Shown here: one piece after another, positions 12,331 to 43,689 of the stretch
How positions within the stretch are numbered: the stretch's first letter is position 1
How the letters are laid out: each line of letters starts with the position of its first letter
Assembly: GCA_963769885.1 (NCBI GenBank)
Contig: CAVYNH010000007.1
Coordinates: forward strand, 160,001-224,000
DNA: 64,000 bases
DNA from: Methanobacteriota archaeon
GTDB taxonomy: Archaea > Thermoplasmatota > E2 > DHVEG-1
Reading direction: 5' to 3'
The notes under the pieces: generated by a model
The model's database searches: none
Seen by the model: the letters and a program-made list of their open reading frames with translations, nothing else
What the model was told of the DNA's origin: nothing
Program-made: the position numbers and the translations under genes

Positions 12331-14535
12331 ATGCCAGAAACAAGCGTTGATGTTGATGTAAAAAGCAAAGGCGACATGGTCATTGACCAGCTCACCAGGA
12401 AACTGGGTATTTTCAACAAGGCTGGCATCGGGATGGGCGTCGCCTTCGCCGGCGTGAATATCGCCGTCGGACTCGTACAACAAGGCATCTCCGGACTGAT
12501 TAACTACATCACCGAAGGCGTCGAAAAGAACCGACAGTTCGAGCTCTCCCTGACGCGCATCGGACTTGAAGCGGGAGACACCAGCGCCGTCGGCCTCGCC
12601 AACCTCCGCTCCGAGGTCGGCGCACTCAGCATCGCATTCGCTACAAGCACCAGCGAGATCGCCGCCGGCATGCAAAGTTTCATACGCGAAGGCGCGAACG
12701 CCAGTCAGGCCATCAACCAGATGGTCGTCGCCGAACGCCTCGCAGTCGTCACCGGCGATGATTTCACCGCGACACAACAGGCTATCACCACCAGTCTTGA
12801 AGTCTTCGACCTCGATGTCGAACAGACAAATAACGTTGCGGAGGATTTGAACCGCATCTGGCACACGACCGGCCTGACCATGGGTGACGTCGCCCGAGTC
12901 TTCGGAAGCAACGCCGGCAAAATCAACGAAGCAGGATTGTCATTAGACGACATGGTCGGCATCATGACGGAACTCGACCAGGAAGGCTGGAGCAACCGGA
13001 CCATGATCAGCCAGCTTGGCGACATCCTCGGCGACTACAAGACCGCTATCGACAAAGCGACCGAAGGCAACAAAAACTTCCGGGATAACCCCCCGATCCC
13101 CACTACCACCGAGGCGTACGAAAAGATCAGCGCGACCACGGAATACACAGATAAGATGATCGCCAGCCTCAGGGAGTACAAACAGATGGACCTCGGCGGC
13201 AAACTCGACATCGGCGCCACCTTCAATAAAGGATTATTTGATAATGCGAAGCAATGGATTGAAATACTGAAAACCGACGGGATCACCACACTCGCGGATT
13301 TCAATCAACAAGTGCAGGCGGCCCATAACCCGTTGACCATCGCCGCTGGACTCCTCGGTCTCTGTTCAGATAAAGAACGCGACATGATAGCAGTGGCTAG
13401 TCAGGCAGGCGGCGACGTTCTCTGGCTTGTCCGCGAGATGCTCGCTTACAATGCTGCCATGGACAAGATGGCTACAGTGACGGACCAGACGAAAAAAACC
13501 CTCAAGGATTGGGTCTCTGGCCTCAACTCCGCGAACGATAAACTCGCTGATTACAACAAGACCGCCGGTGACATCAGCATGGAAGAGCGGCGGATCACGG
13601 CCGTCCACGATCTGACCAGCCAGCTTCACTATATGGACCTCGGACTCAAGGACGCAAGCTACGCCGACCGGATACTGGATGCGCAGACCGCCTCGCTCGT
13701 CGACAGCCTGCGAATGCAGCGGGATGCCATCGATGAACTCACTCAGGCGAACGAACAATATAGTCTCCAGAGCAACGAGAACAGCCTGGAGATGATGAAG
13801 ATACAATACGAGGCGGACGAACACGGTGGCAGGATGACCCGTGAGCAGGAGGCCCGGCTGAAAGAACTCCAGCACGCCAACAACCTCCTGCGGATCAACA
13901 CCATGGAGAACCAGGACCAGATAGATAAAACGCAGATGGACATGGGGCCGGAACAGGCGCGTCTCAACGCAATTAAGACCCGGATGGGCGAAGAAGTCGC
14001 CACGTACCAAGATACCTACAACAAGGAGATTCTGGCGCTGGAGGACAAACGACGCGCTGAAGATCAATTGATCGACGGCGAGATATTGAAACGGCAGGGG
14101 GCCTTGGATGCTATCGCCAAGATTCATAACGAGCAATGGTTGATAGAGCATACAAGCGGCCCGATCACCGGCCCGCAATTCGCTCAATATACTGCTCCTG
14201 TTCCGCCTGGATGGGGTCTCTACCAAGGGCAACCGATCTCCCCGATCCTCGTTCCACTCTATAGGGATCTTCCCGGCTACCGGCAGTATCACGTCGGCGG
14301 TGACGTCCTCGAAACCGGCCTCGCCATGGTCCGCCAGGGAGAACGGATCACGCCGCCCGGCGGGACGCCACCCGGCCCAGCCCTACAGACCCGCCCGGTA
14401 TTCCCACGGATCGAAATCTACCTGCATGTCGAGAACGCCGACAACCTCGACAGATTCGCCCGGAAACTCGGCGAAGCCATCGGGAAGAAACTCATCACCG
14501 GAGACATCCAGAGCGTCTATCATTTCAAAGGGTGA
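12331..14535 (+). CDS. Tail tape measure protein (TP901-like)
   Basis: Ala/Gly helical N-terminal core, long coiled coil, GG.VLETG.AMV..GE.I.P C-terminal motif. Confidence 0.8.
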   Translation: MPETSVDVDVKSKGDMVIDQLTRKLGIFNKAGIGMGVAFAGVNIAVGLVQQGISGLINYITEGVEKNRQFELSLTRIGLEAGDTSAVGLANLRSEVGALSIAFATSTSEIAAGMQSFIREGANASQAINQMVVAERLAVVTGDDFTATQQAITTSLEVFDLDVEQTNNVAEDLNRIWHTTGLTMGDVARVFGSNAGKINEAGLSLDDMVGIMTELDQEGWSNRTMISQLGDILGDYKTAIDKATEGNKNFRDNPPIPTTTEAYEKISATTEYTDKMIASLREYKQMDLGGKLDIGATFNKGLFDNAKQWIEILKTDGITTLADFNQQVQAAHNPLTIAAGLLGLCSDKERDMIAVASQAGGDVLWLVREMLAYNAAMDKMATVTDQTKKTLKDWVSGLNSANDKLADYNKTAGDISMEERRITAVHDLTSQLHYMDLGLKDASYADRILDAQTASLVDSLRMQRDAIDELTQANEQYSLQSNENSLEMMKIQYEADEHGGRMTREQEARLKELQHANNLLRINTMENQDQIDKTQMDMGPEQARLNAIKTRMGEEVATYQDTYNKEILALEDKRRAEDQLIDGEILKRQGALDAIAKIHNEQWLIEHTSGPITGPQFAQYTAPVPPGWGLYQGQPISPILVPLYRDLPGYRQYHVGGDVLETGLAMVRQGERITPPGGTPPGPALQTRPVFPRIEIYLHVENADNLDRFARKLGEAIGKKLITGDIQSVYHFKG

Positions 14536-14565
14536 CCATGGGGGTGATGTGACACGGACAAAGAG

Positions 14566-14772
14566 ATGATCGAGAGACTCATCGGCGGGCAACTACCTTC
14601 CAATGTCTGCAACCTCGTTTTGAGAGGCAACACCCAATACGCCTTCGCGCTCACCGGGGTCGTTCTGGCTATCGGTGATTCTTCGCTGCTCTTCAAGACG
14701 AAACAGAAAGAGGCCGTAATTGATTTTGCGTATATTTTGAAGTTGGAGCCCAACGATCGGAAGGAGTTATGA
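14566..14772 (+). CDS. Small hypothetical protein
   Basis: Tightly packed ORF, ATGA overlap with next gene. Confidence 0.5.
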   Translation: MIERLIGGQLPSNVCNLVLRGNTQYAFALTGVVLAIGDSSLLFKTKQKEAVIDFAYILKLEPNDRKEL

Positions 14773-15026
14773 TAATGCCTCACATTGAACAGGGCAGAGC
14801 CGTGGCGGGTACCCCCTCAACACCCGCCGACTCACCCCAATCACAAAACCGGACTGCGGGCGCACCACCATCAGCGCCCGCAGTTCCACCTCCTTCTCAA
14901 ACCAAGCAAACATATTTCATCTGCTTTAGAGGCGTGACTGGGGACGAAGCCAGAACACTCCTCCGCAACATCCGCCAGAATGCCAAGATCTTCCACATCA
15001 CGGTACGCAGGAGCGCGGACCAATGA
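14769..15026 (+). CDS. Small Pro-rich hypothetical protein
   Basis: AAGGAG SD; ATGA overlaps on both sides. Confidence 0.55.
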   Translation: MIMPHIEQGRAVAGTPSTPADSPQSQNRTAGAPPSAPAVPPPSQTKQTYFICFRGVTGDEARTLLRNIRQNAKIFHITVRRSADQ

Positions 15027-16810
15027 CCGATATCCAGTTCACCAGGGATGTCCCCCCGTTCAAAGCCGGCGAGATCCTCCACGACGCCACAGACAGGGAA
15101 ATCACAGTCTGGCGGACCGTCAACGGCGTCGAAGTCGTCGACAAACAAAAGCCAAAGCCAGAATCACCATCTAAAGAAAAAGAACCCACGCCGCCACCAG
15201 TGCAGGATATTGAACGACAGCCAAATACCGACCAACAACGACTCCGCTGCAGTAGCTGCGGGGCCGCCGCACCCGCCAGCACGCCCGAAGGCGCAGGGCA
15301 CTGCCCGGTGTGTGGCCAGGACACCATCTTCATCCCCCAGCCCGATAATGAGCCTCCAGAGCCAGATCCACTCGCAGGGATCATGGAACGCGCCCTGGAC
15401 CAAGAACAAGACCGGCGACAACGCGAAAACCGCCTCCTGCAATACCTCGTCTTCGAGAAAGACAAGGACGGTAAACCCACTGGCGCCGTTAACTGCATCC
15501 GACTCGCCAGACTCCTCCTCGACGGCGACGGACGAAACTACATCTCAACGGAAGACAACCAGGAAATCTTCAGCTACAACGGCAGTCATTACGTCCCGCA
15601 AGGCGACGCCCTTATCAAACAACGCGTCCAATACTACCTCGGGGACGAAGTCCGCGGACTCGAACACATCAAAAACGAAGTTGTCGGTTACGTCCGAAAC
15701 AACCAGTACATCGACCGCGAGCAGTTCAACCCCCCATTGCACCTCATCAATGTCAACAACGGAATCTACAACCTGCAGACAGGCGAACTACTACCGCATT
15801 CACCCGACCATTATTTCCTGCAGAAAATCCTGGTTGACTACAAACCAGGCGCGAAAATAGACAAGATAGCGGCGTTCCTTGAACAGACATTCAATCAAGA
15901 AGACATCCCGATCCTGCAGGAATTCCTCGGAGACAGCCTCTACCGTTCACACCGCTACAAAAAAGCCCTCATCCTCGTCGGACCCACCGACACCGGGAAA
16001 TCACAGTTCCTCTCCCTCATCGGCAAATTCATCGGGGAAAAAAACGTCGCACACGTCCCCCTCGACCGCCTCTGCCACGATAAATTCACACCCGTCGAAC
16101 TTTACGGCAAACTCATCAACATCCGCGCGGAACTCCACGTCAAAACCCTCCGCAGCATCGACATGTTCCTCATGCTCACCGGCGGCGACGTCATCGGCGC
16201 CGAACGGAAATACCAAAACGGCTTCAACTTCCGCAACTACTCAAAACAAGTCTACAGCTGCAACGAGACCCCAGACTCAGAGAACAAAAACGACGCCTAC
16301 TACAACCGATGGATCCCCGTCGAATGCAGCAACACCATCCCCAAAGAAAACCAAATCCCCAACTATTTTGAGACCATCAGCACAGACGAAGAACTCAGTG
16401 GTTTATTGAACTGGGCCCTCAAAGGACTCTACCGACTCCTCAAACAAGGACACTACTCCCATCACCGATCCATCGACGAAGTCCGAGAATTCATGACCAA
16501 AGGCAAAAACCCCATCCGCGACTTCGCCGACCAATACATCATCAAAGACCCCGACGCAGAGATCACCAACGGCGAACTCTACAACAGTTATAGGGACTTC
16601 TGCAAACTCATGGGCCACCCCATCAAAGACAGCAGCGTATTCTCCAAACTCGTCCACCCCCTCCTCCCACAAGGAACCCAAAAAGGCGAAACCAGCAAAG
16701 ATGGCCATAAACGCGTCTGGCGCGGCATCACCTGCACCTACGTCACCGCCGACCTCACCACCCTCGACCACGACTCAACAGATAAGACCCTTCAGGAAAC
16801 ATTTCCTTAA
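15023..16810 (+). CDS. P4-family/D5-like SF3 helicase with zinc ribbon
   Basis: INVNNGIYNLQTGELLPHSPDHY (D5_N), GPTDTGKS, LTGGD..AERKY, CNETP, RW, LLNWALKG. Confidence 0.9.
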   Translation: MTDIQFTRDVPPFKAGEILHDATDREITVWRTVNGVEVVDKQKPKPESPSKEKEPTPPPVQDIERQPNTDQQRLRCSSCGAAAPASTPEGAGHCPVCGQDTIFIPQPDNEPPEPDPLAGIMERALDQEQDRRQRENRLLQYLVFEKDKDGKPTGAVNCIRLARLLLDGDGRNYISTEDNQEIFSYNGSHYVPQGDALIKQRVQYYLGDEVRGLEHIKNEVVGYVRNNQYIDREQFNPPLHLINVNNGIYNLQTGELLPHSPDHYFLQKILVDYKPGAKIDKIAAFLEQTFNQEDIPILQEFLGDSLYRSHRYKKALILVGPTDTGKSQFLSLIGKFIGEKNVAHVPLDRLCHDKFTPVELYGKLINIRAELHVKTLRSIDMFLMLTGGDVIGAERKYQNGFNFRNYSKQVYSCNETPDSENKNDAYYNRWIPVECSNTIPKENQIPNYFETISTDEELSGLLNWALKGLYRLLKQGHYSHHRSIDEVREFMTKGKNPIRDFADQYIIKDPDAEITNGELYNSYRDFCKLMGHPIKDSSVFSKLVHPLLPQGTQKGETSKDGHKRVWRGITCTYVTADLTTLDHDSTDKTLQETFP

Positions 16811-16844
16811 GGGGTCAGGCAACAAGAGAAGCTACAATGCTGAC

Positions 16845-16973
16845 CATCCACAGCATCCACACCAACCCGGGCTTACCTTTCCCCCCGCACGCGAGCGCAT
16901 TAAGTACACAGTTACACTAAACGCGCACACACGGGGAAAACAGTAATCACTTACAGCCGTGGATGCCGTGGAC
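16845..16973. other. Putative replication origin of element 1
   Basis: Nested inverted repeats directly downstream of the helicase gene; strand skew flips nearby. Confidence 0.5.
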
Positions 16974-17194
16974 GACTAAAACACTATAAAACCCCACCCT
17001 CGTACCTCATCCCGCGTCTCGGCCTTGTCTTTGGAAATTCGATCTTAGATTTTACAGTCCAGAATCCGACTATAGTTCAAAGCCCTGGCTGGGACTATGT
17101 GCCAGACCTGCACTTCCCGCATGGTTTTTCTGCTTGGGTATTTAAAGGAAATTCAAGTTTTTCGAGGGATAAAAATCATGGAGTGTGTTCTTGA

Positions 17195-17740
17195 ATGGCA
17201 GACGAGACATCATCTGAGAGCAAGACCCAGGATCCAATCACGGCCTCGACAGAGGAACCTAGTGGAGAGCCGGTGAAGACGCCGCCGGCAGAGCGCCGCG
17301 TCATCATCAAGAGGTTGATCGAGGAGAAGGGCCTGCATGCCTTGAACAAGCTGGAGTTGGGGCGGCGGTTCGGTATCAGCGATCAGCAGATCACCCGGGA
17401 CGTCGAGGAGATCATGGGTGATCTCCCACCGGTCGATTGGGGGAAGCTTTTCAATAAGACCTTGTTGGACATCGACCGTAGTTTGGACATTGCGAACAAG
17501 GCGTTGGATAAGGCGACGGATGAGCGGATCCGGGGCCGTCTGGCGAATCAGATCTCTGAGATTCTTCTGAAGAAGACGACGATCTTGGAGAAGATGGAGA
17601 AGCTACTGCCCGCATCTGCGAAGGCAGAACCGGTCACGATCACGTACCGCTGCGTCGAGCCCATCAAGGAGAAGAAGGACCTGGAGCCGCCTATGGAGGA
17701 GCCCGTGGTGGATCTCAGTGGGGTGCCTGCCAGTGGTTGA
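17195..17740 (+). CDS. Putative terminase small subunit (HTH)
   Basis: NKLELGRRFGISDQQITRD HTH, helical core, PVTITY strand; overlaps terL. Confidence 0.65.
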   Translation: MADETSSESKTQDPITASTEEPSGEPVKTPPAERRVIIKRLIEEKGLHALNKLELGRRFGISDQQITRDVEEIMGDLPPVDWGKLFNKTLLDIDRSLDIANKALDKATDERIRGRLANQISEILLKKTTILEKMEKLLPASAKAEPVTITYRCVEPIKEKKDLEPPMEEPVVDLSGVPASG

Positions 17741-18977
17741 CGTCGCCTGTCCGCGGGTGTTCCTTGAGAAGCAGAAGGAGTTCCTGGAGAGCGATGCGCG
17801 TTTCATCTATTATTGCGGCGGCTTTGGCAGTGGGAAAACGCTGTGTCTGGCTCATAAGATCATCCGGGGGTCTCTGGAGAATCCGGGAGCGGTGAGTCTG
17901 ATGGCGTCAGCAACGTATCCGATGCTTCGAGACACGGTTCTGCGGACGTTCTTGGAGGAGACGACGTTGTTGCAGAAGGCGTTTGATGAGGCGGGGGCTG
18001 GTGTGAAACTCATCAGGGAGTTCAACCGCGGGGAGCTGCGGATCGTGTTCTTTAATGGCTCGGTCGTCTTGTTTCGGTCGTGTGATTCTCCGGAGAAGTT
18101 CAAGAGTTTGAATCTGGATTTTGTGGGGTTGGATGAGCCGACGGATGTCTCTGAGGATGTGTTTAGGATGTTGCAGGGTCGTCTTCGTGGTCGGCATGCG
18201 AGGAATCAGAGGCATTTCCTTGCGATGAGTGGGAATCCGGGGTCGCGGCTGCATTGGTTGTATGGGTTGTTTTTTGAGCATCCTCCGAGCGGTGACTATA
18301 AGGTGATTAGTACGACGTCGTATGATAATTGTTTCTTGCCGGCGAGTTATATTTCTTCGTTGGAGGCGGGGTATAGTGAGGAGTATAAGCGGCGGTATCT
18401 GCGGGGTCAGTGGGTGAGTTTTGAGGGTCTTGTGTATCCTGAGTTCTCTCGTGAGGTCCATGTCGGTGACTTCCGGGATCGGATGTTCAGTTCGTATGGT
18501 GGGGGGCTGGATGTGGGGTTCACGAATCCGTCGGCCTTCGTTTTGGTGGGGCGTGATGGTGACGATAATTTGTTTGTGCTTCAGGAGTTGTATCAGAGTA
18601 GGTTGACGCCGGTGGAGTTGGCGGCGGCGGTCCGTGAGATGGTCGCGCCGGTGATGGGGTCGTTTAGCGAGGTGTTGTGTGACCCGTCTGCTCCGGGTGT
18701 GATTGAGTCGGTGGGTCGGTTTGTGCGGTGTTCAGGGGCGGATAATGACGTGTTCAGTGGGATCGGGCGGGTGAGGAGTCGGTTTCATCTGCGGCGGTTG
18801 TTCATCGACCGGGGGTGTGTGAACCTGGTCCGGGAGCTGGAGGGCTATGTTTATCAGAAGGAGAAGCAGGGGGCGGAGTATAGTGAGGTGCCGGTGAAGA
18901 AGAATGATCATTTGTGTGACGCGCTCCGGTATTGTTGCATGGAGCCGGGTGGGACGGCCGCGTTCCTCATCGGGTAA
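17718..18977 (+). CDS. Terminase large subunit (PBSX-like)
   Basis: GGFGSGKT, GLDEP, SGNP, GLDVGF, DPS, NDHLCDALRY; exact start uncertain. Confidence 0.93.
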   Translation: MGCLPVVDVACPRVFLEKQKEFLESDARFIYYCGGFGSGKTLCLAHKIIRGSLENPGAVSLMASATYPMLRDTVLRTFLEETTLLQKAFDEAGAGVKLIREFNRGELRIVFFNGSVVLFRSCDSPEKFKSLNLDFVGLDEPTDVSEDVFRMLQGRLRGRHARNQRHFLAMSGNPGSRLHWLYGLFFEHPPSGDYKVISTTSYDNCFLPASYISSLEAGYSEEYKRRYLRGQWVSFEGLVYPEFSREVHVGDFRDRMFSSYGGGLDVGFTNPSAFVLVGRDGDDNLFVLQELYQSRLTPVELAAAVREMVAPVMGSFSEVLCDPSAPGVIESVGRFVRCSGADNDVFSGIGRVRSRFHLRRLFIDRGCVNLVRELEGYVYQKEKQGAEYSEVPVKKNDHLCDALRYCCMEPGGTAAFLIG

Positions 18978-18990
18978 TGAAGGTGACATC

Positions 18991-19338
18991 ATGGATAAAG
19001 AGAACATCGAATCATTGAAGGAACAGATTGACGAGCAAGGCAAACTCATCAACGACCTCCAAATAGTTATCAGACAGCTCGTCGCATTCAACAAAAACGT
19101 CGTCAATCATGCGAAGGCGATCCATGACCTTACAGCCTTCACCAAGACCTTCGTGGGCCTCGAGAATGCACAGAGAAAGACCATCGAACTCCTGCAATTC
19201 AGGATCGACGCGCTCGAGAGACAGGCCGCGGAACTGATTAAAGCCGTCACGTTTGAGAAAAAGGTCGATGAGTTGTCCAATGCCGCCGTCAGTCCGCCGA
19301 AGGACCAGGGCGACATCCACGACCGCAGCTACAGCTAG
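18991..19338 (+). CDS. Coiled-coil protein
   Basis: AAGGTGA SD before ATG 18991; heptad pattern. Confidence 0.65.
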   Translation: MDKENIESLKEQIDEQGKLINDLQIVIRQLVAFNKNVVNHAKAIHDLTAFTKTFVGLENAQRKTIELLQFRIDALERQAAELIKAVTFEKKVDELSNAAVSPPKDQGDIHDRSYS

Positions 19339-19462
19339 ACCACTGAACTACGCCAACGACTAGCATAATTATATATATAATGTTCTGCTTACATAATCGT
19401 AATTAGAGTCTATTTTGTTTTTTTAACTTCAATTAATTGAGCGGGATGTGTAGAATAAACAC

Positions 19463-19481
19463 CAAATCCCGGCTCGGGCCT
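19463..19481. repeat. attR of element 1
   Basis: Exact copy of 6622-6640. Confidence 0.92.
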
Positions 19482-19582
19482 TTACGTTATTGGTGCAAAG
19501 CCCGAACATTTAACACTGGCCGCAGGGTGTTTTCGTGTGTCTATAGGGATACCGCGTCACTGCTTGACCGCTAGATGTTGTT

Positions 19583-19798
19583 CTAACGATTTGCATCAAA
19601 TAATTGGTTAACAAATTTACAACCACGATTATTTGAAGGGTTATAAAAGCACATCTTGATTGATTCCTCCTTTGAAAATTTTAAACATCCCCAACATTGA
19701 CTAAATAATCGCACTTTATGCTCATCTCTATACTTTTTACATAATTTGATTGCTTCCTCTAAAGAAATTGGATTATTATCCGTCATGGTGAAACTCAT
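19583..19798 (-). CDS. Small Cys-rich AT-rich protein
   Basis: QCWGC..C..RGC; fills an AT-rich island. Confidence 0.65.
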   Translation of the reverse strand: MSFTMTDNNPISLEEAIKLCKKYRDEHKVRLFSQCWGCLKFSKEESIKMCFYNPSNNRGCKFVNQLFDANR

Positions 19799-19837
19799 CT
19801 ATTTTTGATATTTAATTCTAATTTTATTCTTATCAGT

Positions 19838-20530
19838 AGCGGCCGGGAATACTGCGTGGTCTGAACCGCAGTGAAGACCCGCAGATGAGAGGCCGCTCGT
19901 CGTCTTTTTCTCACAACACTCGTTACATTTTTTGTCGCGGCGGGCAGGCGTCCGCCTGCCCCTTTACCGCGCGACAGGAGTACAAAAACTTATGGAGAGT
20001 GTATCGAGCGGCAGCTCTAAAAAGGTTGCGGGTGACACCCGCAACAACTGGGTGACCATAATGTTCCCGACACACAAAAGGTACCGGAACTTCCGAAAAC
20101 AAAGCCACATCGACACCTGCACCCAGACGTTCCACAACCTGGAACGCCTTGGGTTCGAGTTCGGCGAATTCGGATTCGCCGAAACCCATGTACATCTCCA
20201 GGTCAACGTTCCCAAGCGGTACTCCATTGAAACCGCTGAGATTATTCTCAAGTCTTACACCTCCCGGAGAATGTTCCAGGCTCACCCCGGGTTCCACAAA
20301 CGCTACCCCCGCGGGGGATTCTGGAGCGGGTACGAGCACCACGAGTCCACCGGATTGACCAGCCTTGATGAATCCTCAGCCTACCTACGCGATCAGCAAC
20401 ACCATCACAACGTGACCATCATCGACGACCGACAACAACGCCTGACCGCCGAGTGAGATACGGCAATGCCCAAGAGGGCTTGCCGAGGAACGAAGGCGGA
20501 ACGGGGTCATAGGGGCGCAGCCCCTATTTC
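19838..20530 (+). mobile_element. IS200-like element (tnpA only); ends approximate
   Basis: Y1 transposase flanked by GC-rich hairpins near 19845-19875, 19933-19976, 20461-20485 and 20509-20527. Confidence 0.7.
19992..20456 (+). CDS. tnpA: IS200/IS605 TnpA Y1 (HUH) transposase
   Basis: KRYR, HVHL, LKSYTSR, FWS, YLRDQ motifs. Confidence 0.88.
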   Translation: MESVSSGSSKKVAGDTRNNWVTIMFPTHKRYRNFRKQSHIDTCTQTFHNLERLGFEFGEFGFAETHVHLQVNVPKRYSIETAEIILKSYTSRRMFQAHPGFHKRYPRGGFWSGYEHHESTGLTSLDESSAYLRDQQHHHNVTIIDDRQQRLTAE

Positions 20531-22310: not shown

Positions 22311-22435
22311 ACACCATCGGCTGGGTTGAGCCGAGGTTTTCCTCACTGTCGCCTATCGGCGCATATTCTATTCACTAGCGTTAAACGATAACGGTTATAA
22401 AGGACAGAAAGCTTACCTGTACATTGGAGAGACAC

Positions 22436-22729
22436 ATGGCTGTGCATAGGCACCTCCTCGAAATCGAAGGTCAGCGGGGCATCCTGCAGATCCTCCTCGT
22501 CCTCAAGGAGAACGGCGACACGCTGTACGCCAACCTCTACAACAACCCCTCCGTCATCAACATCAGCAATAACGTGACCGCCAAGCGCGCCTTGGACATC
22601 CTTCTCAAGCATGAGCTGATCCGCCAGCGACGAGAGAAAGGCAAGCGAGCCATCTACTACTGCCTCACCGACAAGGGCAAGAAATTCACCAGTCACGTCT
22701 GCGTCATGCAGCGGATCCTCACCGAGTAG
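22436..22729 (+). CDS. Winged-helix regulator (HxlR/MarR-like)
   Basis: YCLTDKG wing motif. Confidence 0.7.
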   Translation: MAVHRHLLEIEGQRGILQILLVLKENGDTLYANLYNNPSVINISNNVTAKRALDILLKHELIRQRREKGKRAIYYCLTDKGKKFTSHVCVMQRILTE

Positions 22730-22736
22730 GTCGGGC

Positions 22737-23147
22737 ATGGAGCGGTCCAGCGGCGGCGTAATCCGACACGCCGACCACTACCTCGTCCTGCAGTACGACC
22801 TCGGCCATTGGGGCTTCGTCAAAGGCCACATCGAGGCAAACGAGACTCCCGTCAACGCCTTCCTGAGGGAAGCATATGAAGAAACTGGCCTGACGGTGCA
22901 GGACCTCATCATCATCCCGGACTTCCACGAAAAGATCCATTATTTTTACAAGAAAGGCAGCCAGACTATCTTCAAAGAAGTCCAATATTTCCTTGCGGAC
23001 TCCCGCTCTCGGACCATCGCCCTCTCCTTTGAGCATAAGACCTACCTCTGGCTCCCGTTCATGGAGGCTATCAAGACCATCACCTTCCCTGAAGACCGGG
23101 AAATCCTCGAGAAGGCACACGCCTTCCTCTACCGAGCGAAGAAATAG
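22737..23147 (+). CDS. NUDIX hydrolase (Ap4A hydrolase-like)
   Basis: HWGFVKG..E..AFLREAYEETGL, LSFEH. Confidence 0.88.
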   Translation: MERSSGGVIRHADHYLVLQYDLGHWGFVKGHIEANETPVNAFLREAYEETGLTVQDLIIIPDFHEKIHYFYKKGSQTIFKEVQYFLADSRSRTIALSFEHKTYLWLPFMEAIKTITFPEDREILEKAHAFLYRAKK

Positions 23148-27655: not shown

Positions 27656-27657
27656 TC

Positions 27658-33766: not shown

Positions 33767-33854
33767 CACCGACACATCTCCCCCCTCACTCACTAGAGAT
33801 ATCTTTTTATAACGTATCTTCTTCTACCGCAGTAGGAGCCAGAAAGGTGATGTC

Positions 33855-35606: not shown

Positions 35607-35666
35607 CAACAATTCTAACTATCAAAAAGGGGAAAAAAGAGGAAAAAAGAAGTAAGAGCGTATTTT

Positions 35667-36077: not shown

Positions 36078-36189
36078 AGCTTTGACTCTCCTCAACTATT
36101 CTTGGAGTTATCCGGCTCAATATTGAAGTCTTCTATTTAAGAGTTCCTCTTTTTTCAGACCAGGAGGCGTTATCCTAGGAGAAACCGTA

Positions 36190-36651
36190 TCACCGTTCTT
36201 CCGTCAACCATGCTTCATCAATGCGGGTATAGGAGGCGAGTTCCTCTTCGGAGAACCACAAGTCGATCTCTTTCTGCGCATTCTCAAGGCTGTCTGAGCC
36301 GTGGACGATGTTGCGGCCGATGAACTGCCCGAAATCCCCCCGAATCGTGCCCATCTCCGCTTTCTGAGGATCAGTCTTGCCCATCATATTGCGGGCCATC
36401 TCGACGGCGTTGAAGCCTTCCAGGACCATGGCGACGACCGGAGATGATGTGATATAGGCGACGGTCGGCTCAAAGAAGGGTTTCCCATGGTGGACACCGT
36501 AATGTTGTTCAGCTAAGGTTCGATCGACTGCGACTAGTTTCATGGCAACAATCTTGAGTCCTTTCCGTTCGAATCGGGTGATAATTTCGCCGACGAGGCC
36601 TCGTTGTACCCCATCGGGTTTGACCATGACGAATGTACGCTGCGTGGACAT
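36190..36651 (-). CDS. ndk: Nucleoside diphosphate kinase
   Basis: [21 protein letters not shown]. Confidence 0.96.
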
Positions 36652-36700
36652 CGGTGACACCTACAGGTAGGCATCGTGCCCTGGCTTATGAAACTAACGT

Positions 36701-37450
36701 TTAGATGCCGATGGATTTCCCGAAGAAAAACAGGGTGATACTCGTCACATTAACGAGGATATGAGCGAGGATGGAGGAGTAGAGGTTCTTCGTTCTGATG
36801 ACAACGACGGCGAAGACGAGGCCAAGCATGGTAGCCATCACCGCGGTATAAAACATCCCATATGAGAGGTGGGCGATGCCGAAGAGAACGGCTGAGGATA
36901 CGACTCCGACCCAGGGTCTAGACAACGCGGAGATTTTTTCGAGGAGAAACCCTCGGAAGAAGATCTCTTCGGCTATCGGTTGGACGGTGATGAGGACAAC
37001 GAGTGTTGGAATGGAGAAGAGCTGTTCGAGCTGTGGGATGTTGCTCATCTTTGTGACGTCAACGCCAAATTGCAGGATGACGAGATCGAGGGCTACAGAA
37101 ATGACGAAGGCGGTGACGGCGGCGATAAAACCCCAGAGCAGGGCGTTTCCGAGACCTTCTCGGCGAAGGCCGAGCCGTTGGAATGTTTCCCGCAATCGGA
37201 GGTTGTTGACGAGGATATACCAGATGATGGGGATGACGACCATGAGGATGACGACGAAGAGTAAGGAAAATAGGAGAACGTAGACCTCAATGATGGTCTT
37301 TATGACTCCTGAATAATTGCTGCCTATCCCGTTTGAAGTTGGGAAGGGTTGGAAGTACGCTATCGCCGCATAGACAATGAGCAGGAAGAATGAGATTGCC
37401 ATGAGGAACAATGCGAGTATATGCTTTGGCTTACGGAAGTCAAAGTCCAT
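36701..37450 (-). CDS. CPBP/CAAX intramembrane protease
   Basis: EEIFFRG, FGIAH, AHILVN. Confidence 0.9.
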   Translation of the reverse strand: MDFDFRKPKHILALFLMAISFFLLIVYAAIAYFQPFPTSNGIGSNYSGVIKTIIEVYVLLFSLLFVVILMVVIPIIWYILVNNLRLRETFQRLGLRREGLGNALLWGFIAAVTAFVISVALDLVILQFGVDVTKMSNIPQLEQLFSIPTLVVLITVQPIAEEIFFRGFLLEKISALSRPWVGVVSSAVLFGIAHLSYGMFYTAVMATMLGLVFAVVVIRTKNLYSSILAHILVNVTSITLFFFGKSIGI

Positions 37451-37561
37451 AGGCGGCTATCAACAGGCGAAGGCTAAATAAAGATTGTTACCAGGCTTCC
37501 TAAAGACTCATTAGACAGCTAGAAAATGGAATAATTTGTAAAGAAAAAAGGTGAAGCTGTT

Positions 37562-39760: not shown

Positions 39761-40080
39761 ATGCTCGTCCTTCCTTTAACCCCGTAAATAAGAAGAATAT
39801 TCTCGTATTTATTTCTTTCCAAATGCTCAGATAAAGAACGGCGTGGAAACCCTTTGTGGAGGATGTCACGCTCTATATTCTTTTTACAATTTTTTAGTTT
39901 TTTTCTGATTCAATACGAGTTTACTCTTTCAATTGTGTGGAGGCAGTCTGGCGGTAACATGAAATTGGATCAGGGCTTTTCTTTTATACCCATAGTCGGA
40001 ATCTGTAATGATTTGTTTACAGATTTGATACCCGAATAAGTATTTTTAAATATCCCATGTCCGTTCACCCTTTCACTCCT

Positions 40081-40155
40081 GGGCCTGTAGGGTAGCTTGG
40101 TCCATCCTTTTAGCTTTGGGAGCTAGAGACTCCAGTTCAAATCTGGACAGGCCCA
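40081..40155 (+). tRNA. tRNA-Pro(TGG)
   Basis: GGGCCTG/CAGGCCC acceptor stem, TT-TGG-GA loop, GTTCAAATC; TTTTTAAAT box upstream. Confidence 0.95.
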
Positions 40156-41256
40156 CTCCTTTTTCTCGGAGGGATTCTCCGAGACACCCCCGTTTTCTAT
40201 ACAAGTGTCTCTTTTCCCATCAGGCTTTCCCCCAACCAATGCTAGTGGTTGTCTGAGGGCCTGATGGAACAAATCCCGCCGTTTCCCCTTGACTTGGTTC
40301 TCTATTTCCTGTGAGAGAAAAACGTAGTGGTCTACGTTCTGGGTCTTCACGTGTCCGAGGCTGAGAGCAACCTTCTTGATGTCTTTCGTGCGGTCGTACA
40401 GGTAGGTCGCGTAGGTATGCCGCATGTCGTAGAGGATCGTGTCGTGGTCCTGCATGGTTTCCTTGAACACCGGCGCGATATGCCGTCTGAGGTACGCCCC
40501 GGTCACCCGCCGTCCGTTCGGCTCTAGGAACAGGGCGTTGCCGCTTCTTGCGTCGTCGTAGGCCAGGGGCCGCCATGTGTCCCGGTAATTCTTCGGAGTC
40601 CGGTAGACCCTGCTGGACAGCACCACGGGGTCCCAGGGGTAGACACGGCGGTTTTTCCCGTGTTTCTTATCCTCGGTCAATATGACGTACCCGGTCCCAT
40701 CCGGGTTAATCACCAAGTCGTTTACATCAAGGTTGCATATCTCAGATGGGGGCCGTGGCCCATAGTTGAATCCGAAGAACACGACGCTCTGGAGGAGCGC
40801 ATTCTCATAGGGGTCCGTGCTGTACTCTGCATGGTAGAGCCGGTTGACGATCGACGGCAGCGGGATCACGACGTCTCTATGGGCTTCTGAGGCTCGAATG
40901 CGGGGTGTTTTCACGTATTTATCCCAGTCTTCGGTGTACTGCCTGAATGCCTTCAGGAACATCAACACCGCTTTTTTCTCGTGGTACAACGCGTTCGGTG
41001 ACGCGCCCTCGTGTTCAATCCGGTAGTCCATGTGCCGCAGGAAATCCTCGGGCTTGAGGTCTCGGAAGTTGATGGGGCAGACATGGGTTTCCATCATCCG
41101 GGCGTACCGCAGATGCTTCTCGATGGTCGATAGTCCGAGTTCTTGGCGTACATGCGCGTGGACGGCGACGTCGTTGAAGGTCGCTGTCCGTGGGTCTAGG
41201 AAATAGGGGACGTCAGTTCGCCTGATATTGGTGAGTAGGCTTTGCAGGTCCTCCAT
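40123..41256 (-). CDS. Tyrosine integrase; 3' end runs across att into tRNA antisense
   Basis: GPRPPSE, DKK, YDMRHTYAT, LGH..HY; start uncertain (41256 or up to 41409). Confidence 0.9.
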   Translation of the reverse strand: MEDLQSLLTNIRRTDVPYFLDPRTATFNDVAVHAHVRQELGLSTIEKHLRYARMMETHVCPINFRDLKPEDFLRHMDYRIEHEGASPNALYHEKKAVLMFLKAFRQYTEDWDKYVKTPRIRASEAHRDVVIPLPSIVNRLYHAEYSTDPYENALLQSVVFFGFNYGPRPPSEICNLDVNDLVINPDGTGYVILTEDKKHGKNRRVYPWDPVVLSSRVYRTPKNYRDTWRPLAYDDARSGNALFLEPNGRRVTGAYLRRHIAPVFKETMQDHDTILYDMRHTYATYLYDRTKDIKKVALSLGHVKTQNVDHYVFLSQEIENQVKGKRRDLFHQALRQPLALVGGKPDGKRDTCIENGGVSENPSEKKEWACPDLNWSL

Positions 41257-41421
41257 GAGTTCCCCGGGTGGGGGTAATGTCGGGTCCAGTAGAGAGTGGC
41301 CTATCTGTCCTAAATTCTCGCAACTTTTTACACCTCCTCGCAGGTCAAACGATCTGCAAGGGTGTGAATCCTTTGAATCTATTTTAGGGTTTTCGTCGCT
41401 GGGTTTCAATTCTTCTGTACC

Positions 41422-43689
41422 TCACCCTGCTCTGAATCGTGATTTCGTTGTCACCGGCGGCTGTATGATCGTCGTCGATGTCGGCGTCCTGCCCGTCCGA
41501 GTCGTGACCTGTGTGCCTGGGACGAGGATGTGCGCGCCGGTCTTCCGGCTGATCACGTCCTGACTGGCACCGTTCGTGACTGAGAGGACACCGTTGGCGA
41601 TGCTGGCACCGAGACGTTTGCCCCAGTCCTCGACGCTCTGGCCATGCTCAAGCGTCGCATGAACATCTATTGAGACAGCGCAATTTATCACCCCAGACGG
41701 GCCGCCCTGGGCCACACCCGCTGGGACGACGTATTCGCCTTTGTGGACGATAGCGGCCCCCGTCTCTAGGATGCTGCCGCCTTCCTGAAGCCACGGCACC
41801 CGACCGAATAACCGGTCGGTGATCGGCGTCGACGTGCCGCCTACCGCGCTGACGCCTCCTACGTCCTGCCCGGTGAGCTCCAGCCATTCCCGGTACTTGT
41901 CGATGCTCGCCTGGACTGCTTTCACGTTGTCAACGCCGTACCATTTCAGCCACGCTTGAGCACCCTCAGAGCCGGGGAAGGCGGCCATAGTGGCCTCTAT
42001 CACGCTGATCTGCTGGGTTGTGGCGTCCTTTATCCTGGTGTTGAGCGCGGTGATGCTGTCGCCGTAGGCAGTCATAAGGAGTCCCTCGTGCTGGATACTC
42101 AAATCGAGCGACGAGATCTCCTGTTCGTAGGTGAACGCCCTGGTCTGCTGGGTGATATCCTGGGTTAGTCCGGTGCGTTCGAGCTCGGCCTGCATCTCCT
42201 GGATGCGCAGGCCGAGGTCCTGGTGTTGAAGCTCCTTGAGTTGAGCCTGTTGGTCTCGGTTGAGGCCATGCCGGGTGTCCGCGTTGTACTGCAGTTGCAT
42301 TTCCGCGATGCTGTTCTTAGTGAGTGCCATGCCTAGCGTGTTGATCGCGTCGTCCAGGACCCACGTCTGCTTCGTCTGGTCCTCAAGGCTCTTCAGGAAG
42401 TCGAGGCGGCCTTGGTCCTGGCTCATCTGTTGATTCAAGAGGGCCTGTTGCGAGGTGAGTTGCGGGTAGAGGTCGACGAGGTTCTGGATCTCGGTCCCGA
42501 GGTCCTTGGCGGCTCCCGCCATGTATTGGATCGGTTCGAGGCTCTGCGCGCTGGCGACGGCGGCTATCGCTTCTTTGATGCTGCCGCCGGCGAACAGGTT
42601 GATCGCGGGGAGGGTCGCTATCGTCTGGATGATCCGCGCGGGAAGGTCCAGCCAGCTGCCCATCGTTCGATATCCTGCCTCCCGTTGCTGTGTTTGTTTC
42701 TGGGTGACGAGGTCGGCGGTGTTCAGGTAATCCTTGTACTGCTGCAGAATCTCTTTTCCAGTCAACTTCGAGGTGTCGATGCCGCCGCCCGCTAGGATCG
42801 CCATGCCGGCCGCATAGCTCTGTACGCCTCCGACGAGGCTTTGGAATGCGCTGGCGTTCCCCGCGGTCGCCGTCTGAATCCTGTTAAGGATGCCTTCGAC
42901 GCCCATCGCCTTCAATACGAGACTGTCGTAGGCGATGCCCAAAGAGTTCATGGTCGCAACCTGGTCTTTCGACGGGCTGCTGAGGTTGCTGAGGACTTCC
43001 GTGAGCCCGCTGAACGCGCTCCTGGCTGGAAGGCCTTTCTCGGCCATGTCGCTGACCGCCGAGACCACCTGGTCGAGGCTCATGCCTGCCGCCTGCGCGA
43101 AAGGAGCAAGCCTTTGAATTTCGGTGCCCAGATCGGCCATAGAGATGTTTGTCGTCTGGTACGCCTGGGTGAGCAATTGGCCGACGTAGGCCGACGCGCT
43201 CGCGCTCAGGCTGAAGGCGTCCATCACGTCCGCCAGGGTTTTCGCGGCTGTCGTCTGATCCGTGAACGTCCTAAGGGAGAGCATCATGGACTCGGTGAGG
43301 AGCGTCATACTGTCCTGGATTCGGAACCCTGACTTCTCGATCTCCGTGAATGAGTCGGCGAGCTCCTGGATGCTTTTCCCGCCGCCGATGCTCAGGTTCT
43401 GGAGTTCTTTCTGAAGGTCTGGGAGGAGCGTCTTCTCCTGGTCGGTCAGGATGCTGCTTATCTTGAGCATCTCGGTCGAATAGCTGCGGTAGGATTGGAT
43501 GCTGTCCTCGATGCCCTGCGTCATGCTGTGGACGCCCTGCATGAGGTAGCCGATAGCCATATTCATGGCACTAAAGGCCGCGCCCATCGCCAAGCCTTGG
43601 ACTGAGAAGGCCTTGAATCTCTGTGCCGCTTGGTCCAGGACGCTGCTCATCTGGTCCCTGGCTTTTAAGTCCACACTGATCTCGGTCAT
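41422..43689 (-). CDS. Tail tape measure protein (TP901-like)
   Basis: SVDLKARD start, LAPFAQAAGMSLDQ core, coiled coil, GGSILETGAAIVHKGEYVVP. Confidence 0.87.
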   Translation of the reverse strand: MTEISVDLKARDQMSSVLDQAAQRFKAFSVQGLAMGAAFSAMNMAIGYLMQGVHSMTQGIEDSIQSYRSYSTEMLKISSILTDQEKTLLPDLQKELQNLSIGGGKSIQELADSFTEIEKSGFRIQDSMTLLTESMMLSLRTFTDQTTAAKTLADVMDAFSLSASASAYVGQLLTQAYQTTNISMADLGTEIQRLAPFAQAAGMSLDQVVSAVSDMAEKGLPARSAFSGLTEVLSNLSSPSKDQVATMNSLGIAYDSLVLKAMGVEGILNRIQTATAGNASAFQSLVGGVQSYAAGMAILAGGGIDTSKLTGKEILQQYKDYLNTADLVTQKQTQQREAGYRTMGSWLDLPARIIQTIATLPAINLFAGGSIKEAIAAVASAQSLEPIQYMAGAAKDLGTEIQNLVDLYPQLTSQQALLNQQMSQDQGRLDFLKSLEDQTKQTWVLDDAINTLGMALTKNSIAEMQLQYNADTRHGLNRDQQAQLKELQHQDLGLRIQEMQAELERTGLTQDITQQTRAFTYEQEISSLDLSIQHEGLLMTAYGDSITALNTRIKDATTQQISVIEATMAAFPGSEGAQAWLKWYGVDNVKAVQASIDKYREWLELTGQDVGGVSAVGGTSTPITDRLFGRVPWLQEGGSILETGAAIVHKGEYVVPAGVAQGGPSGVINCAVSIDVHATLEHGQSVEDWGKRLGASIANGVLSVTNGASQDVISRKTGAHILVPGTQVTTRTGRTPTSTTIIQPPVTTKSRFRAG

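Follow-up and report, generated by a model that had tools for sequence, protein, structure and literature searches.

What do tape measure genes do in two small tRNA-integrated elements of an archaeal chromosome, in neither of which a capsid, portal or tail tube gene was detected? The question concerns a 64,000-nt window (contig CAVYNH010000007.1, positions 160,001–224,000; features in Table 1), for which an earlier note had proposed that the two tape measure proteins, TMP1 and TMP2, are diverged homologues with a shared internal signature. All of the peptide strings quoted there are present.

Homology between the two tape measure proteins

Both proteins passed the curated cut-offs of the TP901-1-type tape measure models in their N-terminal third. 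TMP1 scored 51.9 bits against PF10145 (cut-off 33.2; residues 99–250) and 29.4 bits against TIGR01760 (cut-off 28.8), and TMP2 scored 84.4 and 73.4 bits, respectively. All 11 PHROG families matching TMP1 are annotated as tail length tape measure protein, and tape measure families made up 17 of the 19 PHROG matches of TMP2.

BLASTP aligned residues 1–238 of both proteins (24% identity, E = 3e-20) and TMP1 482–723 with TMP2 457–703 (25% identity, E = 5e-10). When local-alignment scores were compared with those of 500 composition-preserving shuffles, no shuffle reached the score of the N-terminal part (residues 1–240; z = 30.1), the first 60 residues (z = 20.1), the C-terminal part (TMP1 452–734 versus TMP2 430–755; z = 22.2), the internal block alone (z = 12.5) or the last ~100 residues (z = 12.2), whereas the middle third (TMP1 240–451 versus TMP2 240–429) was at chance level (z = 0.6; 135 of 500 shuffles reached the score). 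The similarity also exceeded that to arbitrary TP901-family proteins: the C-terminal part of TMP1 scored 154 against TMP2 but 37–70 against nine arbitrary PF10145 tape measure proteins (P0004–P0012), against which that of TMP2 scored 42–63. These comparisons confirmed that TMP1 and TMP2 are true, strongly diverged homologues in which both ends and the internal block are kept. The reported agreement in length to within about 3% was accurate (2.9%) but uninformative, as 15 full-length-looking relatives span 552–907 aa (median 784).

Table 1. Features of the two elements and of their tape measure genes, in window coordinates
Feature	Coordinates	Strand	Evidence or remark
Element 1, 12,860 bp, at 3' end of tRNA-His (6566–6640)	6622–19481	+	19-nt direct repeat
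Tyrosine integrase, element 1	6693–7940	+	PF00589, E = 2e-21
619-aa protein with tail-protein-like C-terminal domain, directly upstream of TMP1	10441–12300	+	domain match to L031; weak BNR matches
TMP1, tape measure protein, 734 aa	12331–14535	+	PF10145, TIGR01760, PHROG matches
TMP1 N-terminal leader, residues 1–60	12331–12510	+	family's most conserved stretch
TMP1 C-terminal module, residues 452–734	13684–14532	+	profile A3
TMP1 internal signature, residues 484–525	13780–13905	+	invariant columns
TMP1 Gly-rich C-terminal block, residues 656–675	14296–14355	+	near-invariant residues in 12 rows
D5-type primase-helicase, element 1	15023–16810	+	PF19263, PF08706; phrog_864, E = 1.7e-71
181-aa ORF immediately preceding TerL, in the position of a small terminase (putative)	17195–17740	+	only phrog_15023, function unknown
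Large terminase (TerL), element 1	17718–18977	+	PF04466/PF03237; sole PF03237 match in this genome (G000)
Element 2, 8,397 bp, at 3' end of tRNA-Pro (40081–40156)	40144–48540	-	12-nt core repeat
Tyrosine integrase, element 2, 3' end overlapping tRNA-Pro	40123–41409	-	PF00589, E = 1.3e-7; phrog_1
TMP2, tape measure protein, 755 aa	41422–43689	-	PF10145, TIGR01760, PHROG matches
TMP2 C-terminal module, residues 430–755, with ~45-residue tail extension	41425–42402	-	alignment
TMP2 internal signature, residues 459–499	42193–42315	-	aligns with TMP1 block
76-aa ORF immediately preceding TMP2, candidate tail assembly chaperone (weak)	43686–43916	-	L012 match
Small terminase (TerS), element 2	45070–45600	-	phrog_4102, E = 4.6e-24

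Family architecture and viral relatives

TMP1 and TMP2 are best explained as members of one tail tape measure family from head–tail (siphovirus-like) viruses of this archaeal lineage. Its members combine a conserved 60-residue leader and a TP901-type domain (PF10145) with a variable middle and a conserved C-terminal module of ~280 residues, which opens with the internal block and continues with the Gly-rich block and a terminal helix. The mean fraction of the 12 aligned rows carrying the commonest residue peaked at residues 1–60 (0.65) and 481–540 (0.62 and 0.57) and was lowest at 331–360 (0.21). Five of the 15 invariant columns lie in the internal block (N484, Q492, R504, L513 and I522 of TMP1), and G656, G657, T662, G670, E671 and P675 are nearly invariant. 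The distance from the motif to the C-terminus is nearly fixed (median 265, quartiles 242–281.5, n = 51), and that from the N-terminus ranges over 396–623 (n = 13). The TMP1 internal signature was modelled as the end of one helix, a conserved six-residue break (498–503) and the start of a long helix (pLDDT 87–94); the Gly-rich block had a pLDDT below 50 as a monomer, and the monomer model was poor beyond the helices.

The suggestion that the internal block could serve as a search marker held up: a pattern scan built partly on it recovered 20 metagenome loci and one viral locus, including head–tail virus contigs and another small element. Its reading as a signature specific to the two elements did not, since the block is kept in all 12 aligned members, including tape measure proteins on head–tail virus contigs, and the module profile A3 matched 877 representative proteins at E ≤ 1e-3 (166 at ≤ 1e-10 and 59 at ≤ 1e-30). 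The shared motif marks the whole family, complete viruses included, and is therefore not special to the pair. Pfam offers no model for the module, and this part of TMP1 had no Pfam match; tblastn gave no match to the module among 50,697 deposited phage records, which sets the family apart from TP901-1-type proteins, and the best match of the profile to PDB sequences reached only E = 0.048. Deposited phages matched the N-terminal domain only, and none of the 230 matching records covered 80% of TMP2.

On virus contigs, family members occupy the canonical TP901-1-type place between tail tube and tail-tip genes. Three such contigs (L012, L016 and L031) each carry a PF18906 tail tube and, after the tape measure, two conserved genes of ~180 and ~460 aa; L012 also encodes a PF05065 capsid protein (E = 3.4e-5, just under the Pfam cut-off). 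Two complete-looking provirus regions (G027:C22 and G173:C40) belong to the same group.

Two tRNA-integrated elements

Element 1 is bounded by an exact 19-nt direct repeat (6622–6640 and 19463–19481; two matches against 0.00 expected), and at this site a same-genus genome carries one repeat copy and cellular genes. The repeat of element 2 is short and imperfect, with an exact 12-nt core (40144–40155 and 48529–48540; two matches against 0.01 expected) embedded in 36 nt that are 75% alike. From tRNA-Pro to the right flank the distance is 2.6 kb in the same-genus genome, which has neither element, compared with 8.8 kb here.

The tape measure gene of element 1 lies between the integrase and primase-helicase genes, not downstream of TerL. 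Directly upstream of it, the last ~100 residues of the 619-aa protein match two small nearby ORFs and the C-terminus of a 444-aa protein of virus contig L031 (E = 2.5e-7), whose gene comes after the tape measure and a 179-aa gene. Two genes upstream of TMP1, a conserved ORF of 108 aa resembles a small DNA-binding protein by eye; no gene of element 1 could clearly be taken for a chaperone. TerL is 38% identical (E = 7e-90) to its counterpart in a same-family genome, where it belongs to a provirus that looks complete. The gene order recurs in L011, a 14-kb element at a tRNA-Asp gene, with identities of 47% (integrase), 51% (tape measure), 76% (primase-helicase), 46% (181-aa ORF) and 63% (TerL); L011 has its own exact att repeat, every one of its ORFs is open, and its site is empty in the genome studied here.

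In element 2, a 31-residue stretch of the 76-aa ORF is 52% identical (E = 1.7e-5) to a 141-aa ORF shortly upstream of the L012 tape measure, and TerS is 32% identical (E = 4.9e-18) to an ORF that immediately precedes TerL in a same-class genome, within a region resembling a provirus. No replication gene was recognised in this element, and its 312-aa ORF at 45941–46879 had no relative among 5.8 billion proteins.

Many ORFs in both elements belong to no recognisable family, so a very divergent capsid or tube gene is possible. Across the host genome, which is 92% complete, PF05065, PF18906 and PF04860 had no match and TerL was single, and a tblastn search with 152 ORF products, taken from seven related loci, turned up neither a capsid nor a portal or tube gene. 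One public run yielded short low-depth contigs with the integrated form only; there was no sign of a helper virus, an excision product, a packaged form or a transcript.

When 18 ORFs of the element 1 region were compared by BLASTP with 15 of the element 2 region, all against all, only the tape measure pair came out below E = 0.01, and the integrases showed no similarity at E ≤ 1. The two elements thus have nothing recognisable in common besides the tape measure gene. Phylogenetic trees placed TMP1 and TMP2 in different well-supported subclades and showed TMP2 to be a mosaic in its sequence, with an N-terminal part grouping with P0016/L031 (support 1.000) and a C-terminal part grouping with L012, L014, L016 and P0003 (support 0.988), the only proteins that share its tail extension. 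It is very improbable that the two genes are paralogues that arose by duplication in this genome, or by exchange between the elements, and then diverged. They do share a chromosome, at a distance of 27 kb, and are similar in length, but each protein is nearer to tape measure proteins of other contexts (TMP1 to that of L011, and at 33% to that of L012; TMP2 to the L016 virus protein, at 31% over the full length, E = 4e-88) than to its partner (24–25% over two parts). The separate clades contradict this origin, no DNA similarity between the regions was found at E ≤ 1e-3, and the same-genus genome carries neither gene.

Candidate satellites and competing explanations

We consider it probable, at roughly 60%, that the two genes were captured independently, by helper-dependent satellites forming chimeric tails. 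The gene content gives both elements the look of such satellites, because each has an integrase and one or more terminase genes without a detected capsid, portal or tube gene, and element 1 adds a primase-helicase. Two unrelated elements would each have taken a tape measure gene from viruses, separately. On co-infection, the tape measure of the satellite would take the place of the helper's: its conserved C-terminal module would dock on helper tail-tip proteins, the helper tube would polymerise along it with the free-running middle as the ruler, and the outcome would be chimeric tails on satellite particles. The conserved blocks would then be the parts that still have to fit helper proteins.

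The docking role is suggested by other viruses. In HFTV1, an archaeal virus with a solved non-contractile tail, the coiled coil of the tape measure protein gp40 is described as setting tube length and its C-terminus as docking into the baseplate hub and the baseplate–tail connector (PMC12494034), which serves as our model for the module, although gp40 has 341 residues and the module profile found no sequence similarity to it. The earlier note had suggested that the conserved blocks and length reflect selection for fitting the tail chaperone or tip of related helpers. Their role as assembly interfaces agrees with conservation in complete viruses' tape measures and with the docking described for HFTV1, but that the helpers are related is doubtful, since the N- and C-terminal parts of TMP2 have different nearest relatives and two different helpers are more likely.

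Chimeric tails have a precedent in the PLE satellites of Vibrio cholerae, which according to a preprint have a chaperone, a tape measure and a baseplate hub of their own, 19–41% identical to those of the helper ICP1; the PLE tape measure is incorporated into virions, tails are shorter as its length predicts, and chimeric tails with ICP1 were shown experimentally (bioRxiv 10.1101/2025.01.29.635557). As described there, PLEs resemble our elements as small integrative elements without a tail tube but with their own tape measure, and in its distance from those of complete viruses (19–41% for PLE versus ICP1; 24–34% here versus virus contigs); the element 1 tape measure likewise adjoins a protein that has a domain in common with a tail-tip-position protein of a virus. 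Our elements differ in that their host is an archaeon and the virus group is of non-contractile type, with a PF18906 tube and no sheath seen; they integrate at tRNA genes by means of tyrosine integrases, carry TerL or TerS, and showed no homologue that could clearly be assigned to the chaperone or hub. EPIPs, ~11-kb satellites of Mycolicibacterium aichiense, also combine a small terminase with a tape measure, and their tails reportedly differ in length from the helper's; compared by description, they are bacterial and carry a serine integrase and head–tail adaptor, stopper, scaffold and capsid-related genes (preprint PMC12822802). PICIs and SaPIs are similar in size, integrase and att sites, replication gene (element 1), terminase subunit and lack of a detected capsid gene, but element 1 has TerL rather than TerS alone, the host is archaeal and a tape measure is present, which classical PICIs, as the PLE preprint puts it, are not known to carry (bioRxiv 10.1101/2025.01.29.635557).

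Alternatively, both elements could be decayed proviruses whose tape measure genes are functionless leftovers, the shared blocks reflecting common descent from related viruses. Most virion genes are absent, the att repeat of element 2 is weak, ORFs without a family are many, and element 1 has an IS200-type transposase just beyond one of its ends; at another locus (L015), two identical IS copies flank a tape measure and a TerS-like gene. TMP2 sits on the family tree's longest branch. It is the sole exception in 12 of 27 nearly invariant columns and is missing a segment present in the others, departures that could mean relaxed constraint. We nevertheless regard decay as unlikely. Both tape measure ORFs are intact over 2.2 kb, and the genes kept are those of a satellite kit (integration, replication, packaging). 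The gene order of element 1 cannot be derived by simple deletions from that of the G027 and G173 viruses, and its layout recurs in L011 at 46–76% protein identity, with open ORFs, a different tRNA gene and its own att repeat, so that continued selection and mobility would be needed.

Less likely still, the elements could be active satellites or defence islands whose tape measure acts mainly against the helper or against host barriers, either as a decoy that poisons helper tail assembly or as a variant escaping a tape-measure-targeting defence or superinfection exclusion. Conserved ends around a diverged middle would fit a protein that competes for the same tip and chaperone partners, and tape measure proteins are described as defence targets: Tab recognises the C-terminal part of the invading phage's tape measure (PMC10884400), and Rta of PLE11 targets that of ICP1 while PLE uses its own (bioRxiv 10.1101/2025.01.29.635557). 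The sequences do not tell this role from that of satellites building chimeric tails. Neither element showed a partner gene resembling Tab or Rta, a weak counterargument because such proteins lack recognisable families. According to the PLE preprint, the satellite depends on the PLE tape measure for its own transfer even when Rta is absent, so interference would be an added rather than the primary role in PLEs.

Homology of TMP1 and TMP2 and their C-terminal module

The window is archaeal chromosome, encoding Pus10, ribosomal protein L21e, Rpb4, aIF5B, and a Hef-type helicase, and it occupies G000:C7:160001-224000 within a source genome (G000) of 2.09 Mb in 7 contigs that is 92% complete. Its two tape-measure genes, TMP1 and TMP2, are carried by elements 1 and 2, respectively, and the peptide strings quoted from them in the earlier note were all found in place in both ORFs. 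Both products were assigned as tape-measure proteins by three libraries: PF10145 (TMP1, 51.9 bits; TMP2, 84.4 bits; both above the Pfam gathering score of 33.2), TIGR01760 (TMP2, 73.4 bits; TMP1, 29.4 bits and barely above the NCBI cut-off of 28.8), and PHROGs, where tape-measure families accounted for 11 of 11 TMP1 matches and 17 of 19 TMP2 matches. Pfam and PHROG searches recognised no tube or distal tail gene beside TMP1 or TMP2 in either element. Relatives on three virus contigs (L012, L016, and L031) and in a provirus region of a same-class genome (G027:C22) occupy the canonical slot between tube/chaperone and distal tail genes, so the TP901-type assignment stands, with an atypical local context.

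Coordinates of the features discussed (window positions unless a contig or locus is named)
Feature	Position	Strand	Size	Remarks
tRNA-Leu(cag)/tRNA-His(gtg)	6341-6640			140 bp apart
Element 1	6622-19481		12,860 bp	exact 19-nt repeat of the tRNA-His 3' end
619-aa protein	10441-12300	+	619 aa	directly upstream of TMP1; weak BNR/sialidase-type repeat matches
TMP1	12331-14535	+	734 aa	ORF
Gly-rich C-terminal block, TMP1	14296-14355	+		
IS200-type (Y1) transposase	19932-20456	+		beyond element 1, ~450 bp from its right att site
131-aa ORF	22343-22738	-	131 aa	outside element 1; no Pfam family
ORF adjoining the 131-aa ORF	22719-23120			no assigned family
Integrase/tRNA-Pro 3' overlap	40123-40156		34 bases	opposite strands
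Element 2	40144-48540		8,397 bp	12-nt exact core in a 36-nt imperfect repeat, tRNA-Pro
TMP2	41422-43689	-	755 aa	ORF
Gly-rich C-terminal block, TMP2	41725-41784	-		
tRNA-Leu(cag)/tRNA-His(gtg), locus L015	L015:2037-20026			17.8 kb apart
Two-ORF tape measure, G027:C22	L042:1126-4373		607 + 426 aa	consecutive ORFs
Two-ORF tape measure, G173:C40	L048:1625-5124		526 + 640 aa	consecutive ORFs
Match to virus hub-position proteins	G000:C7:286233-286733			C-terminus of the 1741-aa ORF; no tRNA nearby
1741-aa ORF	G000:C7:286231-291456 (L033:9231-14456)	-	1741 aa	read as cellular

BLASTP aligned residues 1-238 of the two proteins (24% identity, E 3e-20) as well as TMP1 482-723 with TMP2 457-703 (25% identity, E 5e-10). 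Shuffling gave z-scores of 30 for the N part, 22 for the C part, 12.5 for the internal block alone, and 12 for the last ~100 residues, with none of 500 shuffles matching the observed score in any of the four comparisons. Similarity in the middle (~240-450) was at chance level (z 0.6, reached by 135 of 500 shuffles). The C halves scored 154 against each other, whereas against nine arbitrary PF10145 tape-measure proteins TMP1 scored 37-70 and TMP2 scored 42-63. The proposal that the pair are diverged homologues was therefore borne out, their similarity exceeding that to arbitrary tape measures and to shuffled sequences; such homology is ordinary for members of one family. Their near-equal length had also been read as a signal, which did not hold up: full-length-looking relatives (n = 15) span 552-907 aa (median 784) and 12 aligned members 680-827 aa, and a 3% gap (734 vs 755) is expected of two random family members from the central range.

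The internal block, presented in the earlier note as a signature shared by the pair, proved to be a family trait, kept in 12 of 12 alignment rows and holding five of the 15 invariant columns. Conservation along TMP1 peaked at residues 1-60 (0.65; the leader) and 481-540 (0.62 and 0.57) and was lowest at 331-360 (0.21). Searches of 5.8 billion proteins returned only a handful of full-length relatives of the two proteins. A pattern scan built partly on the internal block recovered 20 metagenome loci and one viral locus, and the family alignment, used as a pattern against 185,579 species genomes, matched 122 stretches, none of them a relative. We also searched a database of 1.84 billion with a profile running from residue 452 to the end, which at E thresholds of 1e-3, 1e-10, and 1e-30 matched 877, 166, and 59 cluster representatives, respectively. 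The strict motif form occurred in 62 among the 150 matches listed. Among the matches listed, the distance from the motif to the C-terminus was nearly constant (median 265, quartiles 242-281.5, n = 51) and that to the N-terminus ranged from 396 to 623 (n = 13). Because the motif is near-fixed from the C-terminus and variable from the N-terminus, the block is placed at the start of a C-terminal module of fixed length (C module; TMP1 452-734, TMP2 430-755), and by these distances the length variation of the family sits upstream of it.

No Pfam model was found on the C module region, and the module had no match in deposited phage records; deposited phages matched the N-terminal domain only, and none of the 230 matching records covered 80% of TMP2. 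An AlphaFold model of the C module only (8-row alignment, mean pLDDT 67) contained helices at 2-46 and 53-157 (pLDDT 82-94), with a six-residue break at TMP1 498-503 between the first helix and the 105-residue second one, followed by a poorly modelled stretch holding a Gly-rich block and a short terminal helix. This block might be a small beta-hairpin trimerisation element. A PDB sequence search with the module profile gave haemagglutinin constructs as its best match (E 0.048), and the segment weakly aligned to the Gly-rich block is presumably their fibritin foldon tag; we treat this foldon-like alignment as a curiosity and not as evidence. A large conserved tape-measure module lacking a Pfam model is less ordinary than the homology of the pair; it deserves a family model of its own and gives a practical means of matching satellites to candidate helpers in metagenomic data.

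Content, boundaries, and upkeep of the two elements

Element 1 encodes, in order, an integrase, small ORFs, the 619-aa protein, TMP1, a D5-type primase-helicase, a 181-aa ORF, and a large terminase (TerL), the sole one in genome G000. Element 2 encodes an integrase, TMP2, a 76-aa ORF, a small terminase (TerS; phrog_4102, E 4.6e-24), and ORFs without an assigned family, and no replication gene was recognised in it. The core of its repeat gave two matches against 0.01 expected. Between the two element regions, no protein pair scored below E 0.01 save the tape measures, and no DNA similarity was detected. In element 2, the integrase gene and tRNA-Pro overlap at their 3' ends, placing the att core inside the integrase reading frame. 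The IS200-type transposase beyond element 1 moves independently, as its DNA matches a different contig in a same-genus genome.

The last ~100 residues of the 619-aa protein match the C-terminus of the protein in tail-tip/hub position on L031, of which it is not a full-length homologue, and L011, the sister element, lacks the 619-aa protein. The gene may have an accessory function, receptor-binding or hub-like. On the virus contigs L031 and L016, the same ~100 residues recur in two small ORFs. Upstream of TMP2, the 76-aa ORF has 31 residues in common with the pre-tape-measure ORF of L012 and is likewise not a full-length homologue. A conserved 108-aa ORF two genes upstream of TMP1 was considered as a tail chaperone and dropped, since its L011 alignment resembles a ribbon-helix-helix regulator by eye. 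For the 312-aa ORF of element 2, there was no Pfam, PHROG, or NCBIfam family, the best Protein Atlas score was 0.79 (under the useful range), and a search of 5.8 billion proteins found no relative but itself.

No Pfam or PHROG match to capsid, portal, or tube proteins was obtained for the 26 ORFs of or beside the elements, several of which have no assigned family, and BLASTP matched no element protein to the capsid, portal, and tube proteins of the virus contigs. Elsewhere in G000 there were no matches to PF05065, PF04860, or PF18906, tblastn with 152 ORF products of seven loci located no capsid, portal, or tube gene, and no helper virus was found in the genome. The terminases have relatives in the canonical places of complete proviruses: the TerL of element 1 is 38% identical (E 7e-90) to that of the G027 provirus, and the TerS of element 2 is 32% identical (E 4.9e-18) to that of the provirus of another same-class genome, G173. 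The L031 virus record, itself 48% complete, contained nothing that matched the element 1 TerL.

These observations could also fit decayed proviruses, a reading that we consider unlikely in view of the state of the elements and of L011, a small element of the element 1 type. L011 has the same layout as element 1 with all ORFs open, at identities of 47% (integrase), 51% (tape measure), 76% (primase-helicase), 46% (181-aa ORF), and 63% (TerL). Its insertion site is tRNA-Asp, where the two exact copies of its own 15-nt repeat lie 14,059 bp apart; its flanks are 74-80% identical to genes on G000 contig C5, where tRNA-Asp has a single repeat copy and no insert. Both elements of the window have integrases and flanking att repeats, and the same-genus genome G015 lacks both at the same tRNAs: its tRNA-His has a single repeat copy, with cellular genes coming next, the distance from tRNA-Pro to the right flank is 2.6 kb compared with 8.8 kb in G000, and it contains no tape-measure match. 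No public RNA run was listed as containing the sequence, and one DNA run contained 22% of the sampled words, in contigs that were short and of low depth. One of these contigs spans the right att site of element 1 as integrated, whereas a joint across the element was not found among them, and neither excised, packaged, nor transcribed copies of the elements were seen. The elements thus appear to be mobile and selected and to rely on another virus for particles.

Viral relatives and the position of TMP1 and TMP2 in the family

Seven of 21 loci, those of at least 5.2 kb, were annotated, the other 14 being short contigs. Five of the seven (L012, L016, L031, L013, and L014) are virus tail modules. 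On L012, L016, and L031, a PF18906 tail tube gene precedes the tape measure and conserved genes of ~180 and ~460 aa follow it; the L012 capsid protein matched PF05065 at E 3.4e-5 (23.8 bits, slightly below the 24.2-bit cut-off). L013 is syntenic with the tail genes of a provirus, and the 184-aa gene downstream of the L014 tape measure matches its counterpart in that provirus. L015 carries a TerS-like gene and a tape measure, has no capsid gene, and is flanked by two identical transposase copies. The tRNA-Leu/tRNA-His pair that is closely spaced in the window is far apart on L015, and between them lie the TerS-like gene, a tape measure of the family (711 aa), a pair of identical DDE_5 transposase genes, and large genes of pilin-like type.

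Two same-class genomes contain provirus regions that look complete and belong to this virus group. G027:C22 has the order TerL, portal, tube, and split tape measure, the second piece of which matches the C module, and G173:C40 has TerS, TerL, portal, capsid, tube, and tape measure. The two-ORF tape measures of these proviruses may be explained by splitting of the gene, by programmed frameshifting, or by misassembly. A further candidate provirus, on contig C7 of G000, came from tblastn with virus hub-position proteins and was read instead as a domain shared with a cellular protein: the final ~165 residues of the 1741-aa ORF form a domain shared with the N-terminal domain of those virus proteins whose genes stand two places behind the tape measure (E 1e-9). 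This may be a shared surface-binding domain. The 131-aa ORF of the window matches a 100-aa ORF of L016 (tblastn, E 6e-13).

TMP1 and TMP2 each have closer relatives than one another, as sequence identities and trees indicated. For TMP1, identity is 51% to the L011 protein and 31-33% to those of L013, L015, and L012; for TMP2, it is 31% to the L016 virus protein across the full length of TMP2 (E 4e-88). The maximum-likelihood tree grouped TMP1 with L011 and protein P0015 (support 100/98) and TMP2 with protein P0016 and L031, on the longest branch (1.52). Duplication within the genome, which the homology of two copies in one chromosome might suggest, is highly improbable given these placements and the lack of other similarity between the elements. 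Separate trees placed the N part of TMP2 with P0016/L031 (support 1.000) and its C part, which has a ~45-residue tail extension absent from TMP1, with L016/L012/L014/P0003 (support 0.988). These trees show TMP2 to be a mosaic, pointing to recombination of tape-measure genes in the variable middle. The N-terminal domain of TMP2, with its ~50-residue insertion, resembles that of the P0016/L031 subclade. In 12 of 27 nearly invariant columns, moreover, TMP2 is the row that deviates.

Possible satellite role of the tape measures

That one archaeal genome contains two unrelated satellite-like elements, both with a tape measure of the same virus family, is again less ordinary than the homology itself. 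We assign a probability of about 40% to the reading that these elements are the first PICI/PLE-like satellites of archaeal head-tail viruses, that carrying an own tape measure is a convergent strategy in both domains, and that the C module is a compatibility determinant. Satellite-encoded tape measures were first demonstrated in 2025, in the Vibrio PLEs (bioRxiv 10.1101/2025.01.29.635557), and were later reported for the mycobacterial EPIPs, which encode one too and whose tails differ in length (PMC12822802). Another 2025 preprint describes pSSVi and pSSVx as the sole archaeal satellites before its own plasmid-derived ones, all of them linked in its account to spindle-shaped viruses, and a 2026 preprint reports one putative circular satellite of an Asgard siphovirus, with no tape measure among its listed genes. 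Searches of the literature on archaeal satellites of tailed viruses listed no tRNA-integrated archaeal satellite with a terminase and a tape measure.

Structural and genetic work supplies the model for a mechanism. The tape-measure coiled coil of the archaeal siphovirus HFTV1 is reported to span the tube and to exit the particle with the DNA, its C-termini docking into the baseplate-tail connector and hub (PMC12494034). According to the PLE preprint, PLEs bring a chaperone, tape measure, and hub of their own, which share 19-41% identity with those of ICP1; PLE virions incorporate the PLE tape measure and exclude that of ICP1; and deletion of the PLE tape measure lowers transfer by 96-99.9% (bioRxiv 10.1101/2025.01.29.635557). 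By analogy, when a helper infects, each element would provide the tape measure that it encodes; the leader and C module would stay conserved because they have to fit proteins of the helper, and the middle could vary freely. We consider it improbable that the tape measures act mainly as antagonists or in evading defence.

If the convergent-strategy reading is true, a helper-family tape measure was captured independently by elements 1 and 2, L015 (a third type), PLEs, and EPIPs, each satellite keeps constant only the leader and tip-docking module, and an un-named 280-residue C-terminal module pairs a satellite with its helper. If the satellite reading holds, the interplay of viruses and their parasites in uncultured sediment archaea is of the same kind as in bacteria. 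As the C modules fall in different subclades, elements 1 and 2 probably exploit different helpers. PLE tails are 10 nm shorter, as predicted from PLE tape-measure length in the preprint, which quotes a figure of ~1.6 Å per residue (bioRxiv 10.1101/2025.01.29.635557); on this figure, the predicted tails would be roughly 117 nm for the 734 residues of TMP1 and 121 nm for the 755 residues of TMP2.
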